A DNA stretch of 34,175 nucleotides from Clostridiales bacterium. GTDB taxonomy: Bacteria > Bacillota > Sulfobacillia > UBA995. The notes beneath the pieces are model-generated. The model did no database searches and was not told the origin of the DNA. It saw only the letters and a list, made by a program, of their open reading frames with translations. A program made the translations under genes and the position numbers. The stretch is taken from assembly GCA_003517845.1 (NCBI GenBank), contig DOZU01000239.1, forward strand, positions 1 to 34,175, given 5' to 3'. Positions 8,383 through 34,069 of the stretch are shown one piece after another; the first letter of the stretch is position 1; every line of letters begins with the position of its first letter.

Positions 8383-9405
8383 GGCGCAATCCTCCTTCAG
8401 GCGCACCCTCCAGGCGAAGGGCGCCAAAACCGCCGGACGGCCGCCGGAGCGCAAGAGGTCGTCAAGACCTTTGCCGCTATCGAGCGGCCAGTCGGCCACC
8501 GAGACATCAAGTCCCCGGAGTTCAAGCTCCCCAACCAGCCCCAAGGCGCACGCGCGCACCTGCGGGTTGGTCTGGAGGTCGGCGTCAAAGGCTACGACTA
8601 CGTAACGCCGGGGACGCTCGGCCACGGCCTGCAGCACCTGGTGCATACAGGTCGTAACGCCGGGGACGGCAATCACGGACACGCCGAGCCGCCAGGCGGC
8701 GTAATCGGCTTTGAGGGGGCCTTCGGTGATCCAGAGGGTCCCATCAAGGCCAGAGCCCGCCGGACAGGCCCAGTGCAGCCGCGCGGCAGCGCCGGCGCCG
8801 CCTTGACGGCGGCTTGACAGCCAGAGGTACCGGCTGCCACCGGCCTTGGGATTGTCCAGCCGGACCTGCAGGCCGCAGATGCGGCCGGCCTCGTCCCGTA
8901 CGGGGACCAAAAGGCCCGGCGGACCAACTACGGTCCAGCCGCCGCGGCGCAGGGCCAGGCCCGGCACGCGGCTTGCCTGGCCTTGGCCGACCGCTTGAGC
9001 GGCGGCCCGGCCGGCATCCTCCCGCAGCAGATCGGAACTCGCGGGCAGGCTCCGGTACAGGCCGTGCTCGACGAGGTCGGAACTGAAATCGCGCGCGTCG
9101 ATCAGGTGGGCGCGGTGGTGCCCCGAAAGTACCAGCCGGGCGAGCATGGCCCGGTAAGCCCGATCAAGGGCTTCCGGGGGGAGGGGCCGGGGCTTGCCTT
9201 TGTCGGCGGGCCCCGACAAGGACCGCATGATCGGAGCCGAGAGCGCCGTCTCGATCAGGCGACCGGCGCGGCCGCACCGAAAGCAGTGCCAGAGCCGGCG
9301 CTCCCGGTTTACATACAGATGCCGGCGGCGGTCGCCGCAGTGCGGGCAGTTCGCCCGGCACTCGCCGCCACCGGCAGGTCTCAGGTCGAGTTCGGCCGGG
9401 TTCAC
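8017..9405 (-). CDS. DNA primase (Zn-ribbon + TOPRIM) continuing in frame, without a stop, into an SSB domain
   Basis: GTG 9405 overlaps the upstream stop (GTGA). Zn-ribbon CPHCGDRRRHLYVNRERRLWHCFRCG. TOPRIM LWITEGPLKAD...VVVAFDADLQ. GKGLDDLL motif. The frame stays open through ...RLKEDCAMLKIVGW... to the SSB tail DDGMPF*. Confidence 0.8.
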   Translation of the reverse strand: MNPAELDLRPAGGGECRANCPHCGDRRRHLYVNRERRLWHCFRCGRAGRLIETALSAPIMRSLSGPADKGKPRPLPPEALDRAYRAMLARLVLSGHHRAHLIDARDFSSDLVEHGLYRSLPASSDLLREDAGRAAAQAVGQGQASRVPGLALRRGGWTVVGPPGLLVPVRDEAGRICGLQVRLDNPKAGGSRYLWLSSRRQGGAGAAARLHWACPAGSGLDGTLWITEGPLKADYAAWRLGVSVIAVPGVTTCMHQVLQAVAERPRRYVVVAFDADLQTNPQVRACALGLVGELELRGLDVSVADWPLDSGKGLDDLLRSGGRPAVLAPFAWRVRLKEDCAMLKIVGWAKVAAPPESQTVARDGRDPMPVFRAILEVAPAPGARGKAPRLPAVAFYQRAEKCAGTGLQEGDTVFVSGSLTTVRQRDASGSGWTEVPGVMLEELAHVRVPDVGGEDGDDGMPF

Positions 9406-10532
9406 TGGCCGTTGACGGGGACAACCTCCGTCACGGCCAGATGGCCGGTCCGGGCGGTCAGGAGACCGCGGGCGGACACCCGCGCGCCTTTCTCGAGCGC
9501 AAGGATCTGCGCTCGAACAGCGTCGTCGCCCAGGCGACTCCACAGCACGGCCCGCTCGCCGGCACCCAAGACGCCGTCTGCCGCATCAACCGCGCAGACG
9601 GGGACTCGGGCGGTCTTGCCGCGGGAGTCCGCCCGCTCTTCGGGGGCAGCTACGACGGCAAAGGTCCCCGCAAACACACGCGGGGGCGGGAGCTGGTCAG
9701 CCCCGGCACCGGTCTTTTCCGGGACCGGGACCGCGGTCGGGTCCGGGGCAGGAAGGGCCTCCGGCTGCGGAGCGGCAAGTTCTGTAGCCCTCTTGGCGGG
9801 CGCCGAGCGCCGGGCCGGCTTTTCGGCCAGCTCGGAAGGCGGGGGAGTCGTCCCCGCGCCCACGCTCGCGCCGTCGCCGTCGACGAACGTGAGTTCTTCC
9901 ACGCTCGTCAACCCCAGCGCGTACGCGAGCCGTATTGCACGGTTCGCGGCGCGGGTACGCGCCATCGCCCGCACGTCCTTCCATGTCGGGCGTTTCAGCC
10001 CGACATCATCAAACGAGGCTTCGCCGAACTCGACGAAGCCCCCGCAAGTGGGGGACTTCTTGAGTTCGGCGCGCCAGCAGGACCATCCGGTCCCGGGCTG
10101 CACCCGGGGCCGGAAGACGTTGCCTTCCTGCGCCCACTGGATGCGCCCTTGCGCATCCAGCAAGTACTCGGGGAGGCCCTCCTGATGGAGGGCCAAATGG
10201 ATTCCGTGGGCCTGGCGGTCTTCCGCCAGGCGCCGCAGGCCCCCGGAGGAAACATAAGGCTTTCCTCCGAGGACCAACAGGTCGCCGAGGAAGGGGTCCA
10301 GGCCATACGCCACAGCCGCGTAGGCCAGGTGCCTCTGGTCCTCCGGCGACAGGTCCTTGGGCCAGAGGGACATCCGGGCCCCGCGCTCCAAAAGCTCGCG
10401 GAGCTGGGACTCCGGCACCAACGGTTCTTTGTTGGGGGCGGGGGCAGGCCGAACAGCCACAGCTCGCACCTCCCGGCGGCGGCCAAGGCCGCCACGAAAC
10501 ACAGCCGCGGCTTGTGATCCGCGGCGAGACAA
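9402..10532 (-). CDS. RecT/Bet-like single-strand annealing protein with a C-terminal OB-fold-like extension
   Basis: YGLDPFLGDLLVLGGKPYVSSGGLRRLA and AMARTRAANRAIRLAY resemble phage RecT/Bet recombinases. The last ~110 aa (FAGTFAVVAAPEE...VSARGLLTARTGHLAVTEVVPV) look like a separate beta-rich domain. The start is uncertain: TTG 10532 behind GGAGGGAGG, or an internal GTG behind GGGAGGTG. Confidence 0.6.
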   Translation of the reverse strand: MSRRGSQAAAVFRGGLGRRREVRAVAVRPAPAPNKEPLVPESQLRELLERGARMSLWPKDLSPEDQRHLAYAAVAYGLDPFLGDLLVLGGKPYVSSGGLRRLAEDRQAHGIHLALHQEGLPEYLLDAQGRIQWAQEGNVFRPRVQPGTGWSCWRAELKKSPTCGGFVEFGEASFDDVGLKRPTWKDVRAMARTRAANRAIRLAYALGLTSVEELTFVDGDGASVGAGTTPPPSELAEKPARRSAPAKRATELAAPQPEALPAPDPTAVPVPEKTGAGADQLPPPRVFAGTFAVVAAPEERADSRGKTARVPVCAVDAADGVLGAGERAVLWSRLGDDAVRAQILALEKGARVSARGLLTARTGHLAVTEVVPVNGQ

Positions 10533-10545
10533 GACACGAAACCTC

Positions 10546-10704
10546 CCTCCCGCGCCCCTGAGGGGCGCTTGATATTGCCCCTCGGGAAAAGGCGCGGGAG
10601 CACCGCGCGGGTTTTCCGGGGGGCCCTGTTGGAAGCTGACACAGGACCGGGATAAAGACCCCCGGAAACCCGCGCGCCAGCATACAACGGCTTATGGCAC
10701 GCGG
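10546..10704 (-). promoter_or_regulatory. Conserved structured 5' leader / regulatory RNA element, copy A (upstream of the replication-recombination operon)
   Basis: About 96% identical by eye to 19471..19628, in the same orientation. RNA sense contains a ~17-bp outer helix GCGCGGGUUUCCGGGGG / CCCCCGGAAAACCCGCGC, an inner CCUGU...ACAGG hairpin, and a 3' helix CUCCCGCGCC / GGCGCGGGAG that includes the SD. Confidence 0.55.
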
Positions 10705-10733
10705 AGAAAAGGGGACCCCGGCAGGGGTCCCCC
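10704..10733 (-). terminator. Intrinsic terminator
   Basis: RNA sense GGGGACCCC-UGCC-GGGGUCCCC followed by UUUUCUCC. Lies 27 nt after the stop at 10760. Confidence 0.75.
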
Positions 10734-17302: not shown

Positions 17303-18244
17303 TCAAGCGCCGGCAGCATCCAGCGCCTGGACGACGGCGTCCCGCACGAGGCGGGCACCTTGGGCGAGATCGAAGAGATCCTGAGAGAGGACCTCTTCGT
17401 AGCTCGCGATCAGGGCCAGCACGGCCTGGGCCTCGCCGACGAGCGTGCTCAGGGCACGCTTGCCGGGCTCTTCGGCCAGGCCGGCCCGAAGGCCGGCGAG
17501 CAGGCGGGCCACGTCGTCCGCGACGGCGTCGCGGATGGTGGCCCGGGCGCCTTTCGTGTCCACCACCGGAAAGGAGGCCCAGGAAGCTTTCAAGGCTTCC
17601 TCTTGGGCCAGGGCACCGAGCCGCGCGAGTTCGTCGGCGTGCTCGGCGGGAACGAAATACACCCCCCCGGACACGCGGACGAGCACGGAGTGCAGCTCCA
17701 AGAGATACCGGCGGAACAGGCTCCGCAGAGCCTCCGCCTGATACAACCGGCGGAAGCGAGCGTAAAGCTCCTCCGCTTGCAGGCAAGCGGCCTGCACGGT
17801 CTCCCAGCCTTCGGAGTCGTAAACCCGAAGGCTCGTTGCGACCGCCGGGCCGGACGCCTGGTGGATCAGGTCGGCCGCCGGGGAGTACTCCAGGCGGCGG
17901 TTCCGGGAGTCGACAACCTCCCGGACGACCTGCCGGTAGCAGTCCCCGGCGGCGTCGACTCCTACTTCCCGCACCAGCAGGTTCATGTACCTGCCGCCGG
18001 GAAGGGCGATCCGCGACCGCTGTACGGCCGCGGTAGCCCGCCGGAAAGCATCGACGGGCTCGATGGCGCGAGGCAGAAGCGCCTCGCGGAGGGCGTGCCG
18101 GGCGAACCCGCCCATGAGGTCGTCCCGGCTTATCTCGACCTGACCTGGAACGGTGAACCAGGTCAGGTGGCCCAAGACCTCCTGGGGAGCGGCGGACGGA
18201 AAAACAGCGGCTTTTCCGTCCAGGGGCTTCGGAAGGGCGTTCAT
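17303..18244 (-). CDS. Hypothetical protein (313 aa) preceding the AAA+/VWA pair
   Basis: Lies within ORF 17303..18313. Start moved to ATG 18244 behind AAAGGAGG. Balanced composition (MNALPKPLDGKAAVFPSAAPQEVLGHLTWFTVPGQVEISRDDLMGGF...VYFVPAEHADEL...). No family recognised. Confidence 0.75.
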   Translation of the reverse strand: MNALPKPLDGKAAVFPSAAPQEVLGHLTWFTVPGQVEISRDDLMGGFARHALREALLPRAIEPVDAFRRATAAVQRSRIALPGGRYMNLLVREVGVDAAGDCYRQVVREVVDSRNRRLEYSPAADLIHQASGPAVATSLRVYDSEGWETVQAACLQAEELYARFRRLYQAEALRSLFRRYLLELHSVLVRVSGGVYFVPAEHADELARLGALAQEEALKASWASFPVVDTKGARATIRDAVADDVARLLAGLRAGLAEEPGKRALSTLVGEAQAVLALIASYEEVLSQDLFDLAQGARLVRDAVVQALDAAGA

Positions 18245-18365
18245 GCACGCCCCTCCTTTCATGGGACAAACAGCGGCCGCCGCCCAAGAACAGACGGCGG
18301 CCGCACATCGCAACCGGCGCAGAGGGAAATACCAGCCTTGCGCGCCGGCCTCTCCCCCGTCCAGT

Positions 18366-18620: not shown

Positions 18621-18702
18621 TTCGCTGACCTCCTGAAGGGGCGAGGACGAGGCCCCGCCCCTTGATTTTTTCTTGCCGGGCCCGGGGCCGGGCCCGGGGT
18701 TA

Positions 18703-18810
18703 CTACTGGTCGAACATCCAGGTTCGCACGAAGATTACGAGCCTGGGTCCGAGAACACACATTAGTGCTGGGCCGAAAACGCCCAGCACCAGCGCGGCGA
18801 TCCCTTCCAT
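18703..18810 (-). CDS. Possible 35-aa hydrophobic membrane peptide
   Basis: ATG 18810 lies behind AAGGGGAG. Product MEGIAALVLGVFGPALMCVLGPRLVIFVRTWMFDQ*. Below the ORF-track cutoff. Confidence 0.3.
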   Translation of the reverse strand: MEGIAALVLGVFGPALMCVLGPRLVIFVRTWMFDQ

Positions 18811-18922
18811 TTTGACGGCTCCCCTTTCCGGGGAGACCGGCGGGACTGGACAGACCCGCCCTGCCTCCCCTGTCAACTCCCGGCGCAGGACGCGCCGGAT
18901 GCAGAGGCGGAGACAGGACGGG

Positions 18923-19462
18923 TCAGTAGGTCGCCGCCGGAGTGCAGACGGCGGGACCGCCCCGGGCCCGGAGCCGGCACGCTTCGAGGCGTGCCGACCC
19001 GGGATAGAGAGTGAGGTTGCCCATCGCCCGGGCGGCGACGGGCTTTATGTCGTCGGCGTCGCCGGCGGGGGAACCGCCGACGGGCTGCCATCCGGGTCCG
19101 ACCACCCGGAACTCCCGGAAGAGTTCCAGGCGGGTGCCCGGGGGGAACAGCCCGGCGTACCAGCCGCCCCGCCGGCACACCCAAAGGGTGCCGGCCGGGG
19201 TCTCAAGGACACGACCCTTGGCGCAGATGAAAAGCGCCTGGGGCCAAGTTCCGGCCGGCGCCGGGGCCAGCCGGAACCGCACGGGGCCGCCGGGCTCGGC
19301 TCGCCAGCCCCGGAGGAAGAACACTCCGGGGTGGGCCGGCGCGGAGCCCTCAAAGAGCAGCTCCACGTTGGCCCGGGTGAACCGGAGCCGGCCGCGGGGA
19401 CGCTCGACGATGTCCGGCCGGGCGAAGACCCGGTCGGACACCTCGACCGCAAAATCGGACAT
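18923..19462 (-). CDS. Hypothetical protein (179 aa), first gene after leader copy B
   Basis: ATG 19462 lies 6 nt behind GGGAGGTG, which is the 3' end of the leader. Product MSDFAVEVSDRVFARPDIVERPRGRLRFTRANVELLFEG... looks beta-rich. No family recognised. Confidence 0.65.
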   Translation of the reverse strand: MSDFAVEVSDRVFARPDIVERPRGRLRFTRANVELLFEGSAPAHPGVFFLRGWRAEPGGPVRFRLAPAPAGTWPQALFICAKGRVLETPAGTLWVCRRGGWYAGLFPPGTRLELFREFRVVGPGWQPVGGSPAGDADDIKPVAARAMGNLTLYPGSARLEACRLRARGGPAVCTPAATY

Positions 19463-19470
19463 CAAACCCA

Positions 19471-19628
19471 CCTCCCGCGCCCCTCAGGGGCGCTTGATAT
19501 TGCCCCTCGGGAAAAGGCGCGGGAGCACCGCGCGGGTTTTCCGGGGGGCCCTGTTGGAAGCTGACACAGGACCGGGTTAGAACCCCCGGAAACCCGCGCG
19601 CCAGCATACAACGGCTTATGGCACGCGG
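19471..19628 (-). promoter_or_regulatory. Conserved structured 5' leader / regulatory RNA element, copy B (upstream of the accessory operon)
   Basis: Second copy of 10546..10704. It differs only by one base in the CCCCU-N-AGGGG apex and by a 6-7-nt patch (GGGUUCUAACCC vs GGGUCUUUAUCCC) between the outer and inner helices. Confidence 0.55.
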
Positions 19629-19639
19629 GAAAGAACGCA

Positions 19640-19723
19640 AAATGCTCAAAAGGCTTGACCAAGAAAGGGCCGCCGCAAGCCCCCGGCTTCAGACACAGGG
19701 ATAAGGCGGCCTTTTCTTGGTCA
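19640..19723 (-). terminator. Long hairpin plus U-rich tail ending the upstream operon
   Basis: 19-nt arms TGACCAAGAAAAGGCCGCC / GGCGGCCCTTTCTTGGTCA (one mismatch) around a 30-nt insert, followed in RNA sense by AGCCUUUUGAGCAUUUUGCGUUCUUUCC. Confidence 0.5.
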
Positions 19724-19786
19724 GCCCGAGACCACACAGGAGGAGGAGAGCGGTCCGGGGCCGAAGGGCCCGCTCCGGCAAGGCCG

Positions 19787-20551
19787 TCAGCTTGAAGCGA
19801 GGCGGACGGGCTCAAGGCCGCGGCTGACGGGCCGCCAGAACTCGGCCCGGCCGTGAAATAGCGGGCCGTCCCAGGTCAGGCGGATCTCCATGCCGGATAC
19901 GCGGACCACACGGCCGAGTTCTTCGGCTTGTTCGCGGGAGCCGGCTACCAGGACGAGCACCGAGGCGATATCGGCGGAAAGACGCGCCGCGTCACGCGCC
20001 CAGTCGAGTTCGCCAGGCCACAGCCGGGCGACGAGGACGCCGAAAGGGGCGCCGGCGGAAAAGATGGCGGTCAGGCCGCCGCCGGGCTCGATCTGCACGG
20101 GAAACGGACCCCAAAGACGCCATAGCAGCATATAAAGCTGTGAGGAGGCGGCCAGACGCAAGGCGCGCAAGGGCTCCCAATCCTCGACAACGGGAGGGCC
20201 GCCCATGAGGCGGCGGCCGCACGGGCCTTCGACGTAAAGCGAGGGGATGCGGCTTGAGAGAAAGTCCAGCCGATCGGCTAAACCGCCCCGGCACATGCGC
20301 CGGAGGAGGTCGCGGACGGAGTGCACGCCTACCCCCGCCAGCTCGCCTAGCTGAGCACCGGACATGCACCGGAACCGGCGCAGGAGGCTTAATGCGGCTG
20401 CATCCGCTTCGGACACCAAAGGGCCGGGAGGCGCGAAGGCGGCCGCAGACGTGTTGGAAATTACGCGCCGAAGATGGATGCAACCGGCGGGATCGCCGCT
20501 CCAAGGGCCCCGGCCGGAAGCACGCCTCAGCGCTTCAACAGGGGTTCCCAC
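19787..20551 (-). CDS. Winged-helix protein, replication-relaxation-family-like
   Basis: GTG 20551 lies 6 nt behind GGAGGT. The N-terminal segment AALSLLRRFRCMSGAQLGELAGVGVHSVRDLLRRMCRGGLADRLDF looks like a wHTH of the Replic_Relax type. The remainder is unassigned. Confidence 0.5.
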   Translation of the reverse strand: MGTPVEALRRASGRGPWSGDPAGCIHLRRVISNTSAAAFAPPGPLVSEADAAALSLLRRFRCMSGAQLGELAGVGVHSVRDLLRRMCRGGLADRLDFLSSRIPSLYVEGPCGRRLMGGPPVVEDWEPLRALRLAASSQLYMLLWRLWGPFPVQIEPGGGLTAIFSAGAPFGVLVARLWPGELDWARDAARLSADIASVLVLVAGSREQAEELGRVVRVSGMEIRLTWDGPLFHGRAEFWRPVSRGLEPVRLASS

Positions 20552-21540
20552 GCGAAGACCTCCAACACGCGGAGCCCCATTCGCCGCTGGGACGGGTCAA
20601 GCCGCGTCACCAGAACGAGAACTTCGGCTCCGGGGATCAAGGACTGGGGGCCGGGACGCGGAGCATAGCCGGTGAGGCCGCCATCAAGCTCCACGAGATA
20701 TCCTTTGGTGGAAATCGCGCAGGCCACCCGGCCGCGATGCTTGGTGCCGGGCGGGTATAGCTCGCCGGCGCGATCCCAGGGGTCGGGCAAGAGCGGCCGC
20801 AGCGAGAGACGCAGAAATTCTTTTTCGCGGCACGCCGCTAGCACGGCGAGCTTCAAGGAGGCGCCGCGCCGGACGTAAGCGAGCTGCCGGGCGTCGGGCG
20901 CGTGCGACCAAGTCATCTCTTCAACGGGCAGCCATCCGACCAGGCCGCCGACTTCCACGCCGGCGCCGCGGCGGGAGACCCAGCGCACGCAGCCTACTAC
21001 CACGGGCGCTTCGGCGCGCTCTTGCCGGCGAAGTTCGTCTATGCGCGCCCGCAATTCGTCGGTTTCAGGCGATTTGCCGCCGTTTTCGGAGGCGATCTCC
21101 CTCAGGCGGCCGAGTGCCTGGCGAAGCTCTTCTTGGAGGACGCCGTGGCCGGCGGCTGCGGGCTCCAAAGCTTGCCAGGTGGCGGGGATGAGTTCTTCCA
21201 AGGCTTCCCGGCGCGAGAGCTGCACCTGGCCGAGCGCTCGGTCAACAGACTTGATCCGGACGAATACGGACCAGCCGATCATCTCATCGATCCGGCGGGG
21301 ACGCGGATGCCCGATCTCTCCTTCGGGGAGGTGCCCGATCACGCCGGCGCCGAACGACACGCGCAGACGGCGGCGGCCGGTGGCGGGATCGACATCGCAG
21401 CCGCTCACATCCACCCGCAAGGGCTTGCCGGACTCCAAGGCGGCCTTGAGACGACCGTAAACCTCGGCGGACTGCGCGACGCCGAGATCGACTGCAGGCC
21501 GGTGACGCACGCCTTCGTTGCGGAGCTTTACCAAGCGCAC
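20527..21540 (-). CDS. Protein with three S1-like RNA-binding (OB) domains and a central coiled-coil
   Basis: GTG 21540 lies behind AAAGGAGG. S1-type segments: RVSFGAGVIGHLPEGEIGH, GCVRWVSRRGAGVEVGGLVGWLPVEEMTW, GRVACAISTKGYLVELDGGLTGYAP. Confidence 0.7.
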   Translation of the reverse strand: MRLVKLRNEGVRHRPAVDLGVAQSAEVYGRLKAALESGKPLRVDVSGCDVDPATGRRRLRVSFGAGVIGHLPEGEIGHPRPRRIDEMIGWSVFVRIKSVDRALGQVQLSRREALEELIPATWQALEPAAAGHGVLQEELRQALGRLREIASENGGKSPETDELRARIDELRRQERAEAPVVVGCVRWVSRRGAGVEVGGLVGWLPVEEMTWSHAPDARQLAYVRRGASLKLAVLAACREKEFLRLSLRPLLPDPWDRAGELYPPGTKHRGRVACAISTKGYLVELDGGLTGYAPRPGPQSLIPGAEVLVLVTRLDPSQRRMGLRVLEVFAWEPLLKR

Positions 21541-33831: not shown

Positions 33832-33869
33832 GAAATGCGCCCTCCCCCCCTAGCTGCTCCCAACGCACC

Positions 33870-33910
33870 CCGGTCTGCTTTGGCGCCCGCAGGCGCCGTC
33901 AGCAGCCCGG
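33870..33910. repeat. 41-nt imperfect palindromic hairpin, copy 1
   Basis: CCGGTCTGCTTTGGCGCCCGCAGGCGCCGTCAGCAGCCCGG. It recurs at 34029..34069 with three substitutions. Confidence 0.6.
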
Positions 33911-34028
33911 AACCCGCACGCGAAAACCCCGCATAATAGCCGCTTGGAAAGCCGTATGGATCCACGCCTTTCCCGGATATGAAAACCCACGCAACACCAA
34001 CCAGACCAGCTCTCGGTCCCGGCCTGCT

Positions 34029-34069
34029 TTGGCGCCTGCAGGCGCCGTCAGCAGACCGGGACCTTCCCC
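34029..34069. repeat. 41-nt imperfect palindromic hairpin, copy 2
   Basis: CCGGCCTGCTTTGGCGCCTGCAGGCGCCGTCAGCAGACCGG. It contains the perfect 16-bp palindrome GGCGCCTGCAGGCGCC and starts 159 bp after copy 1. Confidence 0.6.

Follow-up and report, generated by a model that had tools for sequence, protein, structure and literature searches.

Structured, repeated or switching leaders directly upstream of ribosome-binding sites (RBS) have precedent in Gram-positive conjugative plasmids (PMC8708921, PMC13401043). One of them, cATT, is a zipper-type transcriptional attenuator of the pLS20 family and other Gram-positive conjugative plasmids, in which a long stem-loop lies between an upstream stem-loop and a downstream hairpin, and the conformations are of similar free energy (PMC13401043). 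The long stem is extended when the upstream stem-loop pairs, through its 3' arm, with the complementary 5' arm of the downstream hairpin, which is a functional intrinsic terminator located 0-26 bp upstream of the Shine-Dalgarno (SD) sequence (PMC13401043). Plasmid pLS20 also carries EGeRS1, elements of 420-750 bp in 4-5 copies that are much richer in GC than the plasmid on average; they prevent read-through in a single orientation and are without a sigma-A promoter (PMC8708921). In phage HK022, putL and putR are two copies of a multi-hairpin cis-acting RNA that head two operons and lie upstream of terminators (PMC8191782). Frpo-type promoters act as single-stranded DNA (ssDNA) and carry their -35 and -10 hexamers, at a spacing of 16-18 nt, inside the stem of a folded single strand (PMC11541004).

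Here we analyse a non-coding unit of 168 nt that occurs twice in a stretch of 34,175 nucleotides (the window) from a conjugative plasmid-like element of an uncultured high-GC Bacillota bacterium. Like cATT, the unit is a probable 5' leader, placed ahead of an operon's first gene in a Gram-positive conjugative element, is predicted to contain a 5' hairpin (H1), a long imperfect stem-loop and a hairpin with a U-tract that are linked by zipper complementarity, and has two conformations of similar calculated energy. It differs in having no sequence similarity to cATT, in the strength of H1 (about -20 kcal/mol, against -6.4 kcal/mol for the weak SL-2 of cATT) and in its downstream hairpin (T), a putative terminator with a 6-bp stem and CUUUU at about 35 nt from the SD. 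The 3' arm of T is also the anti-SD strand, which would add a translational layer undescribed for cATT. Moreover, the gene that follows is not a recognisable conAn1, the genes behind it are DUF6744, MoxR and VWA genes rather than T4SS genes, and the element is present twice.

With EGeRS1 the element shares multiple similar copies rich in inverted repeats, very stable predicted folds, and a Bacillota conjugative element as host; no sigma-A promoter is recognisable in either, although for the present organism the scan is uninformative. EGeRS1 lies immediately upstream of the RBS of several operons; here an RBS directly adjoins copy B, and the real one at copy A is 80 nt away. However, EGeRS1 membership is defined by >60% sequence similarity to pLS20 EGeRS1, a length of 420-750 bp and a GC content above the plasmid mean, and the present element, with 168 nt, average GC, two copies and no similarity in PLSDB (which may or may not include pLS20), falls outside this definition.

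Frpo and ssi sites are likewise repeated, hairpin-forming, non-coding elements upstream of co-oriented genes in conjugative elements, yet the present element has no -35/-10 hexamers in its stems, shows no homology to them and reaches into the SD. As with the put sites, two copies stand at the heads of two gene blocks of one mobile element, but put (~70 nt) and EAR (~120 nt) have other architectures, and the EAR model RF01735 reaches 14.5 bits where its gathering score is 42. RNA thermometers are built from weak, mismatch-containing helices that melt at 30-45 °C. The anti-SD:SD pairing with an alternative upstream partner, hairpin T, resembles such thermometers (ROSE, fourU) and SD-sequestering riboswitch platforms, from which the element differs in that it has no Rfam aptamer match and that its masked state has a predicted advantage of 7-14 kcal/mol and is still predicted at 70 °C.

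Results

A duplicated putative leader at the head of two gene blocks

Copies A and B are direct repeats of about 168 nt each on the minus strand, 8.9 kb apart and 95% identical by BLAST with the edges included (Table 1). Profile searches found no further or degenerate copies in the window and 10 kb more of the 66-kb contig. Over the full unit, the copies differ at one base, in a three-column patch within an internal loop and at both edges, in agreement with the original prediction that only two sites differ within 19471-19628. The variable base (19485 in copy B, 10560 in copy A) is the centre of GCGCCCCT[C/G]AGGGGCGC, i.e. GCGCCCCU-N-AGGGGCGC, and the patch at 19574-19582 (TCTTTATCCC vs T-TCTAACCC) amounts to one indel and two substitutions. 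Both sites had been taken as unpaired, which is correct for the patch, located in the internal loop of the long hairpin P3, but the apex base is free solely in the local hairpin (b) treated below, and lies within a G-U pair in the MFE fold of copy B. The argument that the differences avoid the helices is weaker than claimed, too. For one SNP and one patch, with 33% of positions unpaired, its chance probability is ~0.1 when two events are counted and ~0.01 when four are, and we judge the case not compelling.

The element has the GC content of its surroundings (0.67 vs 0.667 for the window), its inverted repeats are 10-18 bp long and 45-58 nt apart, and within the 168 nt there are four exact instances of the 7-mer CCCGCGC or its complement, plus one with a single mismatch. 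As judged from its reading frames the element is non-coding, because a 1-nt indel between the copies and further indels between lineages break every frame; coding potential was dropped on this ground. A MITE-like mobile element was rejected as well, since neither terminal inverted repeats beyond the helix of the element's 5' end (P1) nor a target-site duplication were seen.

All genes around both copies are co-oriented, and the host element encodes a T4 coupling protein, PolA, a primase and a ParM-like protein. Leader B is followed by genes for the 179-aa protein, an 84-aa protein, DUF6744, MoxR and VWA, and leader A by genes for the 352-aa protein, a DUF3854 primase, a PD-(D/E)XK nuclease, a rhomboid protein and PolA. 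The 254-aa protein encoded upstream of leader B has a weak Replic_Relax match (E 0.004). ATG 19462, the start assigned to the SD of copy B, is likewise called in three independent assemblies, and it is conserved in the ortholog. The 179-aa protein has no match in Pfam, NCBIfam or PHROG, with the Pfam searches of protein and ortholog empty up to E 10, and its AlphaFold model (mean pLDDT 46) is too poor for a fold search. Its identification as ConAn1 was rejected, with no PF17362 signal even at E up to 10. The SD of copy A had been assigned to a TTG start at 10532, which is not supported: both the gene caller and the ortholog alignment give GTG 10460, and P0003 and the orthologs of the 352-aa protein begin with MAV. 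The copy A SD has no supported start codon and lies 80 nt upstream of the real start, so SD control alone cannot account for the repeated unit.

A promoter scan returned nothing at the element; the same scan finds essentially none window-wide and is hence uninformative for this organism. A sigma-54 or sigma-70 promoter in the element was rejected, as manual reading found no conserved hexamers or GG-N10-GC and the scans were empty. Rejected, too, was an antisense transcript with its 3' end at the terminator-like hairpin that 19477-19493 forms on the plus strand; no promoter was found for it, and copies A and B have different flanks.

Table 1. Features of the two leaders and their surroundings in window coordinates; hairpins and strands are predicted.
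Feature	Position	Strand	Basis and remarks
Leader copy B, whole repeated unit	19463..19630	-	Repeat families D1/D2, alignment, fold; order SD + 8 nt + ATG 19462
Leader copy A, whole repeated unit	10538..10706	-	Repeat detection, alignment, fold; abuts U-tract of preceding terminator
H1, 5' hairpin CCCGCGUGCCA : UGGCGCGCGGG (s1:s2)	19590..19629	-	Growing-transcript simulation; RNAalifold
P3, long hairpin, outer arms GCGCGCGGGUUUCCGGGGG / CCCCCGGAAAACCCGCGCG	19529..19601	-	Folds
Hairpin T, GCGCGG-UGCUC-CCGCGC then CUUUU (s3:s4)	19512..19533	-	Terminator-like; sequesters anti-SD strand
Anti-SD strand CUCCCGCGCC (s4)	19516..19525	-	Folds
Distal hairpin (c) of P4, AGGGGC / GCCCCU, A/U-rich loop AAUAUCAAGC	19486..19508	-	MFE folds
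SD strand GGCGCGGGAG + GUGGG	19466..19481	-	Folds; SD GGGAGG at 19471-19476
Hairpin (b) GCGCCCCUGAGGGGCGC	19477..19493	-	Alternative of the original prediction; minor state
179-aa gene, first after leader B	18923..19462	-	Exact product in ENA, JGI and Logan contigs
352-aa gene after leader A	9402..10460	-	Start GTG 10460; own SD GGGAGG at 10469-10474
337-aa protein, two S1 RNA-binding domains	20527..21540	-	Domain searches; two genes upstream of leader B
Long terminator-like hairpin + U-rich stretch	19665..19727	-	Fold; downstream of 254-aa gene, just upstream of leader B
Intrinsic terminator GGGGGACCCC-UGCC-GGGGUCCCC-UUUUCU	10705..10733	-	Tail runs into leader A
Terminator-like hairpin GCCGCGG-AUCACAAG-CCGCGGC + UGUGUUUCGU	10504..10525	-	Between leader A and real start of next gene

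Conservation in a second lineage

One other lineage, comprising the MAG UBA995 and related metagenome contigs, carries a leader (L004) before the orthologous gene, whose product P0002 is 67% identical to the 179-aa protein. Identity between the lineages is 77% for the leader as a whole and 84-89% for outer P3 and the 3' helix P4, compared with 71-74% for coding sequences and 50% for adjoining intergenic DNA; by this measure, the leader is no less conserved than its flanking genes. In outer P3 of L004, one arm has lost a G and the other the matching C, a compensatory double indel that keeps the predicted pairing perfect, and distal P3, although just 56% identical, is predicted to form a hairpin in each lineage. 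RNAalifold, given only three variants from two lineages, found no pair with both sides changed; it shows one C-G to U-G change among the H1 pairs (13-39 etc.) and one A-U to G-U change in hairpin (c) of L004. At the site of copy A, the orthologous gene of the other lineage is without a leader.

Distant-mode blastn of the element gave no match in PLSDB plasmids (pLS20 may or may not be included) or INPHARED phages. Viral, genome and metagenome sequences, scanned with exact and gapped patterns, yielded only the known relative, DBBB01000025.1, and chance matches in unrelated high-GC coding DNA, an outcome confirmed by an nhmmer profile check. Homolog searches with three flanking proteins returned the same second lineage as the only close, syntenic relatives, with five additional distant matches (31-40% identity) for the 376-aa query.

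Predicted fold and masking of the Shine-Dalgarno sequence

Both copies are strongly structured, with folding z-scores of -4.1 and -5.1 vs dinucleotide shuffles, and in alignment and fold the copy edges match the ends of the folded domain. As RNA, the folded sense strand is 3-12.5 kcal/mol more stable than the antisense strand and contains more G-U pairs; with DNA parameters, the strands fold about equally (-50.2 and -48.3 kcal/mol; z -4.7 and -4.1 vs shuffles). The originally predicted fold (a), in which the anti-SD strand pairs with 19472-19481, occurs as part of P4 in the MFE fold and the centroid fold of each copy, and the GUGGG after the SD has two alternative predicted partners, the element's 5' end (P1) and AAACCC of P3.

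In all three variants (A, B and L004), the first GGG of the SD has a P(unpaired) of <0.01 and the A of <=0.05 at 37-70 °C, with the last two bases reaching 0.2-0.9 at 70 °C. Opening the SD costs 6.8-13.7 kcal/mol. For folds of the 3' domain with a free SD, the penalty is 7.9-11.4 kcal/mol at 37 °C, and at 70 °C it is still 6.6-8.3 kcal/mol. Thermodynamic folding, the check put forward with the original prediction, thereby gives an SD-pairing helix that is more than competitive, being dominant in prediction. These models support burial of the 179-aa gene's SD within the 3' helix; in both lineages this SD is placed in the 3' arm of P4, 8-9 nt before the ATG. By itself, SD occlusion is common in sequence of 67% GC, and by opening energy the two leader SDs rank 31st and 44th of 149 GGAGG pentamers. 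The 13-nt RBS window of ATG 19462 has the second highest opening energy among 24 gene starts.

A thermosensor, as had been suggested, is unlikely because of the cost of the SD-free folds at both temperatures; the SD helix is predicted to be intact at 70 °C (P(unpaired) <=0.05 for GGGA). The other proposal was that fold (a) and hairpin (b) exclude each other and that (b) frees the SD. Both pairings are indeed present in the sequence, but (b) contests just GGCGC and the overlap is incomplete; when (b) is forced, at a cost of 4.6-8.7 kcal/mol, copy A and L004 keep GGGAG:CUCCC, and copy B alone shows a partial release. In simulated transcript growth hairpin (b) is never the MFE, and it appears in the constrained MFE with T forced for copy B and L004, being absent in copy A. 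A balanced switch between two folds is not upheld, (b) not being competitive by energies. GCGCC is present twice, both instances being rivals for the same GGCGC, and (b) is retained in the second lineage as GCGCCC-UGAC-GGGCGC. This retention is not independent evidence, since both arms of (b) are in any case required to build helices (a) and (c).

No Rfam 15 family matched anywhere in the window at gathering thresholds, and the best sub-threshold matches near copy B were to snoRNA and miRNA models (22-27 bits vs thresholds of 47-63). What remains of the predicted translational-switch architecture is a structured leader with an SD-burying helix, without a balanced pair of (a) and (b) or an Rfam riboswitch family. 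As a rival for the anti-SD strand, the models make the upstream segment CCGCGCGG of hairpin T more plausible than hairpin (b).

A predicted chain of overlapping helices

H1 is the first structure to form in the growing-transcript simulation and then persists; it is predicted in A, B and L004, has a conserved loop containing GUUGU and competes with the lower part of P3. P3 itself includes the variable internal loop with the A/B patch and a distal hairpin at 19547-19573. Hairpin T has a stem of G-C pairs, a 5-nt loop and the tail CUUUUCCC with four U residues. It forms in the simulation at transcript lengths of 120-150, and the terminator scan flagged it in L004 while leaving it unflagged in the window. 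In all three variants, the 3' arm of H1, GGCGCGCGGG, is predicted to pair with the 5' arm of T, CCCGCGCGG, which makes up the lower 7-8 bp of P3.

The energy of the T state relative to full P3 was calculated for A, B and L004 as -1.4, -2.5 and +0.6 kcal/mol at 37 °C and as -3.0, -3.8 and +0.9 kcal/mol at 55 °C. When the U-tract has just been made, H1 with T and full P3 are thus near-balanced (-3.8 to +0.9 kcal/mol). Segments of CG repeats pair promiscuously, so that near-isoenergetic alternatives may arise without selection. The longest blocks identical between the lineages are s3-T-s4-UUU (23 nt), s5-SD-s6 (18 nt) and s2 (13 nt), and perfect conservation of the switch segments is what would be expected if they had two partners.

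Discussion

On the predicted folds, the element is most likely an RNA leader that keeps a ribosome-binding site buried. We propose, with a probability of roughly 45%, that the repeat is a modular cis-acting leader RNA that is transcribed with the minus-strand genes, heads two gene blocks and masks the RBS of the first gene by default through a chain of helices. Five segments with CG cores would form this chain: H1 (s1:s2), lower P3 (s2:s3), T with its U-tract (s3:s4) and P4 (s4:s5, anti-SD:SD). At equilibrium P4 would be closed and the purine tract past the SD held by the 5' end or by AAACCC of P3, and the RBS would be masked by default because of these two pairings. The sole route offered by the sequence to open the SD would be that H1 holds s2 and leaves s3 free, whereupon T captures the anti-SD strand and the SD strand moves into hairpin (b). 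T and its CUUUU could double as a weak attenuator. The choice between the states might be made by kinetic trapping or by a trans factor, such as a protein bound to the conserved loop of H1 or the S1-domain protein that the element itself encodes; from its two S1 domains, we infer that the 337-aa protein is a candidate trans-acting opener. What the analysis shows is the sequence with its duplication and conservation, along with the predicted energetics; transcription of the element, its action at the RNA level and the trigger are what we infer.

Among the alternatives, an element that acts on transcription only survives best, though we regard it as unlikely. It would be an EGeRS1-like insulator or attenuator of read-through, or a processive antitermination RNA of the put, EAR or conAn2 type passing downstream terminator-like hairpins, with the SD pairing incidental. 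Such hairpins are not in short supply: they precede both copies, one follows within 13 nt of copy A, which does not stand beside a start codon, and three lie inside the block after copy B (18791-18763, 18304-18273 and 14487-14442). The presence of two copies at two operon heads also parallels putL/putR and the five EGeRS1 copies of pLS20 (PMC8708921). However, no PLSDB plasmid shows sequence similarity, the EAR model stays far below its gathering score, PF17362 is absent from the 179-aa protein up to E 10, and the element has the GC content of the window and 168 nt instead of 420-750. Incidental pairing leaves the tight, conserved SD-in-helix geometry of two lineages unexplained.

We consider somewhat less likely again that the element works as a single-stranded DNA fold within the strand that is transferred or displaced, either as an sso/ssi site for RNA polymerase or the DUF3854 primase or as a Frpo-type promoter. 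The host element is conjugative and self-replicating, its genes are co-oriented with two same-strand copies among them, DNA-parameter folds are far better than shuffles on both strands, and there is ample precedent for repeated ssDNA promoters ahead of leading-region genes (PMC11541004). Yet neither strand of either copy has a -35/-10 pair in any stem, even at a relaxed 9/12, and PLSDB holds no similar plasmid sequence. The G-U pairs and the gap between sense and antisense folding favour RNA, and an sso or ssi site would have no reason to house an SD in a helix or to end at SD + 8 nt + ATG in two diverged lineages.

A feature of double-stranded DNA, i.e. a duplicated promoter/operator cassette whose CG-rich inverted repeats are protein sites, or a neutral recent duplication with a functionless copy A, seems improbable to us. 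The recurrent CCCGCGC 7-mer would suit protein sites, and copy A, confined to one lineage, nearly identical to B and unused for the start of its gene, would suit neutrality. The length and spacing of the inverted repeats are unlike operator half-sites, though, and neither version fits the preservation of pairing through coordinated indels and a resequenced distal hairpin, the coincidence of copy boundaries with the ends of the folded domain, or the conservation of copy B's position above that of neighbouring coding DNA. Finally, a local riboswitch or thermosensor in which hairpin (b) GCGCCCCUNAGGGGCGC alternates with the anti-SD helix to free the SD is very unlikely, given the SD core retained on CUCCC, the high cost of freeing it, the transcript-growth simulations and the empty Rfam search for riboswitches and thermometers.

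The proposed masking leader RNA can be extended to a bolder model, which we also hold to be improbable: a five-segment relay RNA, undescribed before, in which a zipper-type attenuator (H1 / P3 / T) is joined to an SD mask (P4), such that one upstream decision would set both read-through and translation. Its two-operon regulon (MoxR-VWA-DUF6744; recombination/replication) would turn on once conjugation has brought the element into a cell, through an RNA-binding protein that the element encodes, for example the one with two S1 domains.

In summary, our study is in silico throughout, and its reach is limited to the two uncultured lineages from which the element is known. With 168 nt, the element is a compact test case for an attenuator-like zipper coupled to SD masking. 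If real, it would be a high-GC, sequence-unrelated addition to the recently recognised structured leaders that gate Gram-positive conjugative operons, and such a leader could be copied as a self-contained module, placing a second operon under the same control.

Results

On the gene strand, the RNA of the ~168-nt unit folds at -98.1 kcal/mol in copy B (ahead of the 179-aa gene; z -4.1 against dinucleotide shuffles) and at -98.0 kcal/mol in copy A (ahead of the 352-aa gene; z -5.1). In the predicted fold (Table), the Shine-Dalgarno sequence (SD) GGGAGG lies in the 3' hairpin P4, where it would be paired essentially always: at 37, 55 and 70 °C, the probability of being unpaired is <0.01 for the first GGG and ≤0.05 for the A in copy A, copy B and the second-lineage relative, L004. 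Among all GGAGG motifs in the window, judged in local context (n=149; median opening cost 5.6, 95th percentile 13.0 kcal/mol), the two leader SDs rank 31 and 44, at 8.7 and 7.2 kcal/mol. For the whole 13-nt ribosome-binding site (RBS) window, ATG 19462 costs 16.1 kcal/mol to open and ranks second of 24 gene starts, behind the DUF6744 start at 18244 (17.1 kcal/mol). Predicted SD occlusion alone is therefore not distinctive in such GC-rich DNA.

Predicted leader folds and features of the surrounding DNA
Feature	Position (strand)	Description
Copy A	10538-10706 (minus)	starts within the U-tail of a strong intrinsic terminator, GGGGGACCCC-UGCC-GGGGUCCCC-UUUUCU
Copy B	19463-19630 (minus)	upstream, long terminator-like hairpin after 254-aa gene; downstream, ATG 19462 of 179-aa gene
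H1		5' hairpin, s1:s2, 10-11 bp; earliest structure in transcript simulation, persists
Lower P3		s2:s3
P3		long hairpin; 18-bp outer arms, internal loop with the A/B patch, 7-8 bp distal hairpin
T		s3:s4, GCGCGG-UGCUC-CCGCGC, then CUUUU
P4		SD mask, s4:s5; CUCCCGCGCC pairs with GGCGCGGGAG, extended by G-U pairs, capped by hairpin (c), AGGGGC/GCCCCU
Purine tract after SD		GUGGG or GGAG; pairs with the unit's 5' end (P1) or AAACCC of P3
Terminator-like hairpin	10525-10504	after copy A; followed by a second hairpin
Separate SD	10469-10474	after both hairpins; serves GTG 10460
352-aa protein gene	9402-10460 (minus)	start GTG 10460
337-aa protein gene	20527-21540 (minus)	S1-domain protein
Gap after 179-aa gene	18621-18922	~300 nt, non-coding, hairpin-rich
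Terminator-like hairpin	18791-18763	within the gap
Strong hairpin, U-rich tail	18273-18304	between 84-aa gene and DUF6744 start
46-nt repeats	33869-33914, 34018-34063 (minus)	upstream of RNase H-like gene, start ATG 33831

The original prediction was that this 3' helix sequesters the SD and that two mutually exclusive local folds, the anti-SD:SD helix (a) and an SD-freeing hairpin (b), form a switch. The helix is indeed competitive in thermodynamic folding, in fact dominant rather than marginal. Folds with GGGAGG unpaired cost 7.9-11.4 kcal/mol at 37 °C and 6.6-8.3 kcal/mol at 70 °C in the isolated 3' domain, and 6.8-13.7 kcal/mol in the full leader. Forcing hairpin (b) costs 4.6-8.7 kcal/mol; because (b) competes for GGCGC only, the pairing of GGGAG to CUCCC then survives in copy A and the relative, and in copy B GGGAG is only partly freed. 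As the simulated transcript grows, the first hairpin to form is (c), helix (a) closes next, and at no point is (b) the minimum free energy (MFE) fold. The two folds are therefore not a balanced switch, and the opening cost that persists at 70 °C makes a thermosensor unlikely.

A wider set of alternatives emerges from five segments with a common CGCG core, s1 CCCGCGUGCC, s2 GGCGCGCGGG, s3 CCCGCGCGG, s4 (the anti-SD strand) and s5 (the SD-side strand), which allow four overlapping pairings: H1, lower P3, the terminator-like hairpin T and P4. For a transcript ending just past the U-tract, H1 + T against full P3 gives -1.4 (A), -2.5 (B) and +0.6 (L004) kcal/mol at 37 °C, and -3.0, -3.8 and +0.9 kcal/mol at 55 °C. 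When T is forced in the full-length RNA, the penalty at 37 °C is 3.4-10.3 kcal/mol; hairpin (b) then also forms in copy B and L004, with the SD partly or fully open, while in copy A it is absent and the SD finds a new partner downstream. Hairpin (b) is thus understood, in the main, as accompanying T rather than as competing directly with the SD helix.

The two copies are 95% identical by BLAST, edges included. Within 19471-19628 they differ in the middle base of GCGCCCCT[C/G]AGGGGCGC and in a patch, TCTTTATCCC vs T-TCTAACCC; the alignment confines all other mismatches to the two edges of the unit. The claim that these differences, confined to two places, avoid the helices depends on just two to four events where 33% of positions are unpaired, and the 'apex' base, said to be unpaired, is G-U paired in the MFE fold of copy B. 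Altogether, the initial observation is partly confirmed and its interpretation partly supported. The 1-nt indel between the copies and the indels of the second lineage leave no conserved reading frame, so the unit is non-coding. One Logan assembly contig (L003, position 1-61) breaks off within the repeat at a point 54 nt short of the 179-aa gene, as expected for a 168-nt repeat present twice in one replicon.

Relatives were sought in plasmid and phage collections, by scanning viral, genome and metagenome collections for sequence patterns, and by three protein searches. All routes led to one other lineage with the leader (JGI 3300032023, NCBI DBBB01000025.1 and a Logan contig; L004-L006, L019), whose sole named member is a contig from an unclassified Bacillota, the MAG 'Firmicutes bacterium UBA995'. 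There the leader precedes the 179-aa gene ortholog, with GGGAGG 9 nt before the ATG. Between lineages, the leader is 77% identical in nucleotides overall (84-89% in outer P3 and P4, 56% in distal P3), against 71-74% in the two flanking coding sequences and 50% in the intergenic DNA directly upstream. The longest identical block, CCGCGCGGTGCTCCCGCGCCTTT (23 nt), matches precisely the stretch of s3, T loop, s4 and U-tract; next in length come s5-SD-s6 (18 nt) and s2 (13 nt), as expected of segments constrained by two partners. In outer P3 of the second lineage one G is gone from the 5' arm, the matching C from the 3' arm and also the bulged A; distal P3 differs in sequence and retains its hairpin fold. 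RNAalifold shows one A-U pair in (c) and one C-G pair in H1 changed to G-U on the gene strand, and counts no pairs changed on both sides among the three variants. As RNA, the gene strand of these variants is more stable than its complement, by 3.2, 5.1 and 12.5 kcal/mol. The paired loss in P3, the retained distal hairpin, the G-U changes and the strand asymmetry speak for a selected structure of the gene strand. The ortholog of the 352-aa gene in the second lineage lacks a leader, which makes copy A a duplication, confined to one lineage, of the complete folded module.

The window (66.7% GC; nearly all real genes on the minus strand by codon-position GC) is part of a conjugative, self-replicating element. 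It encodes a TraG/VirD4-type coupling protein, a family-A DNA polymerase, a PD-(D/E)XK nuclease, a DUF3854 primase with zinc ribbon, a MoxR-VWA-DUF6744 module, methyltransferases and a NERD nuclease, and the 66-kb metagenome contig to which it belongs also encodes a ParM-like protein, just beyond the window. The 179-aa product has no detectable family. For the 352-aa gene, the start at 10532 (TTG) proposed earlier gives way to GTG 10460, backed by both the gene caller's product and ortholog alignment. Its protein matches no Pfam or NCBIfam family and has a conserved YGLDPF...LGG.PY...GEAS...KD.RAMARTRA core, common to metagenomic proteins at 31-64% identity; we take it to resemble a single-strand annealing (RecT-like) protein. 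The gene adjoins those of the primase and the PD-(D/E)XK nuclease.

Two genes upstream of leader B, the element encodes a 337-aa protein, kept in the second lineage, with two S1 RNA-binding domains (residues ~177-323; NCBIfam rpsA models, E down to 5e-20). Given the hairpins at 18791-18763 and 18273-18304, the operon after leader B has predicted internal terminators. Where the window has DUF1828 genes, the relative (L029 940-1602, DBBB01000184.1) has, ahead of the 375-aa ortholog, a gene with a Gad2 (PF26128) domain that is itself preceded by a 173-aa gene, so the cargo between conserved modules differs. The 46-nt repeats, a second structured intergenic family (91% identical, 149 nt apart), form a nested hairpin, GGUCCCGGUCUGCU..GGCGCC-UGCA-GGCGCC..AGCAGGCCGGGACC. 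A sigma-70 consensus scan found only two sites in 34 kb, not above shuffles; evidently, promoters of the element or host do not fit the TTGACA/TATAAT rule used.

Discussion

The most likely reading, to which we give a probability of about 45%, is a modular cis-acting leader RNA. In its default state the RBS would be masked, and a relay through H1, P3, T and P4 could set the leader's state, possibly with an attenuation component.

The leader matches no Rfam family. Its closest parallels are found in conjugative plasmids. A 2026 report describes zipper-type attenuators in pLS20 and many other Gram-positive conjugative plasmids, in which an upstream 3' arm is complementary to a downstream 5' arm, their pairing extends a long stem, and the states are near-equal in energy (PMC13401043). 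The predicted leader folds likewise flank a long stem with a stem-loop upstream and a hairpin plus U-tract downstream. However, H1 is strong where the attenuator's upstream stem-loop is weak, T is short and only a candidate terminator, its 3' arm doubles as anti-SD, and the following gene is not detectable as conAn1 (assigned to PF17362; PMC8191782). In pLS20, EGeRS1, repeated and rich in inverted repeats, directly precedes the RBS of five operons, lacks a sigma-A promoter and stops read-through in one orientation by a mechanism not known (PMC8708921). It offers a second parallel, yet the leader is far shorter, not GC-enriched and, by blastn against PLSDB, unrelated in sequence.

The leader may instead be a single-strand origin or primase site. 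Under DNA parameters the two strands are about equal in folding (-50.2 and -48.3 kcal/mol), but a site of this kind would not explain why the SD-in-helix geometry is conserved. Frpo-type ssDNA promoters need -35/-10 hexamers in the stem (PMC11541004), and a scan of the leader stems found none.

In summary, the leader is known from two uncultured lineages only, by computation alone. As a regulatory RNA it most likely joins, on its predicted folds, the regulatory leaders already described from conjugative elements, as a new member unrelated to them in sequence.
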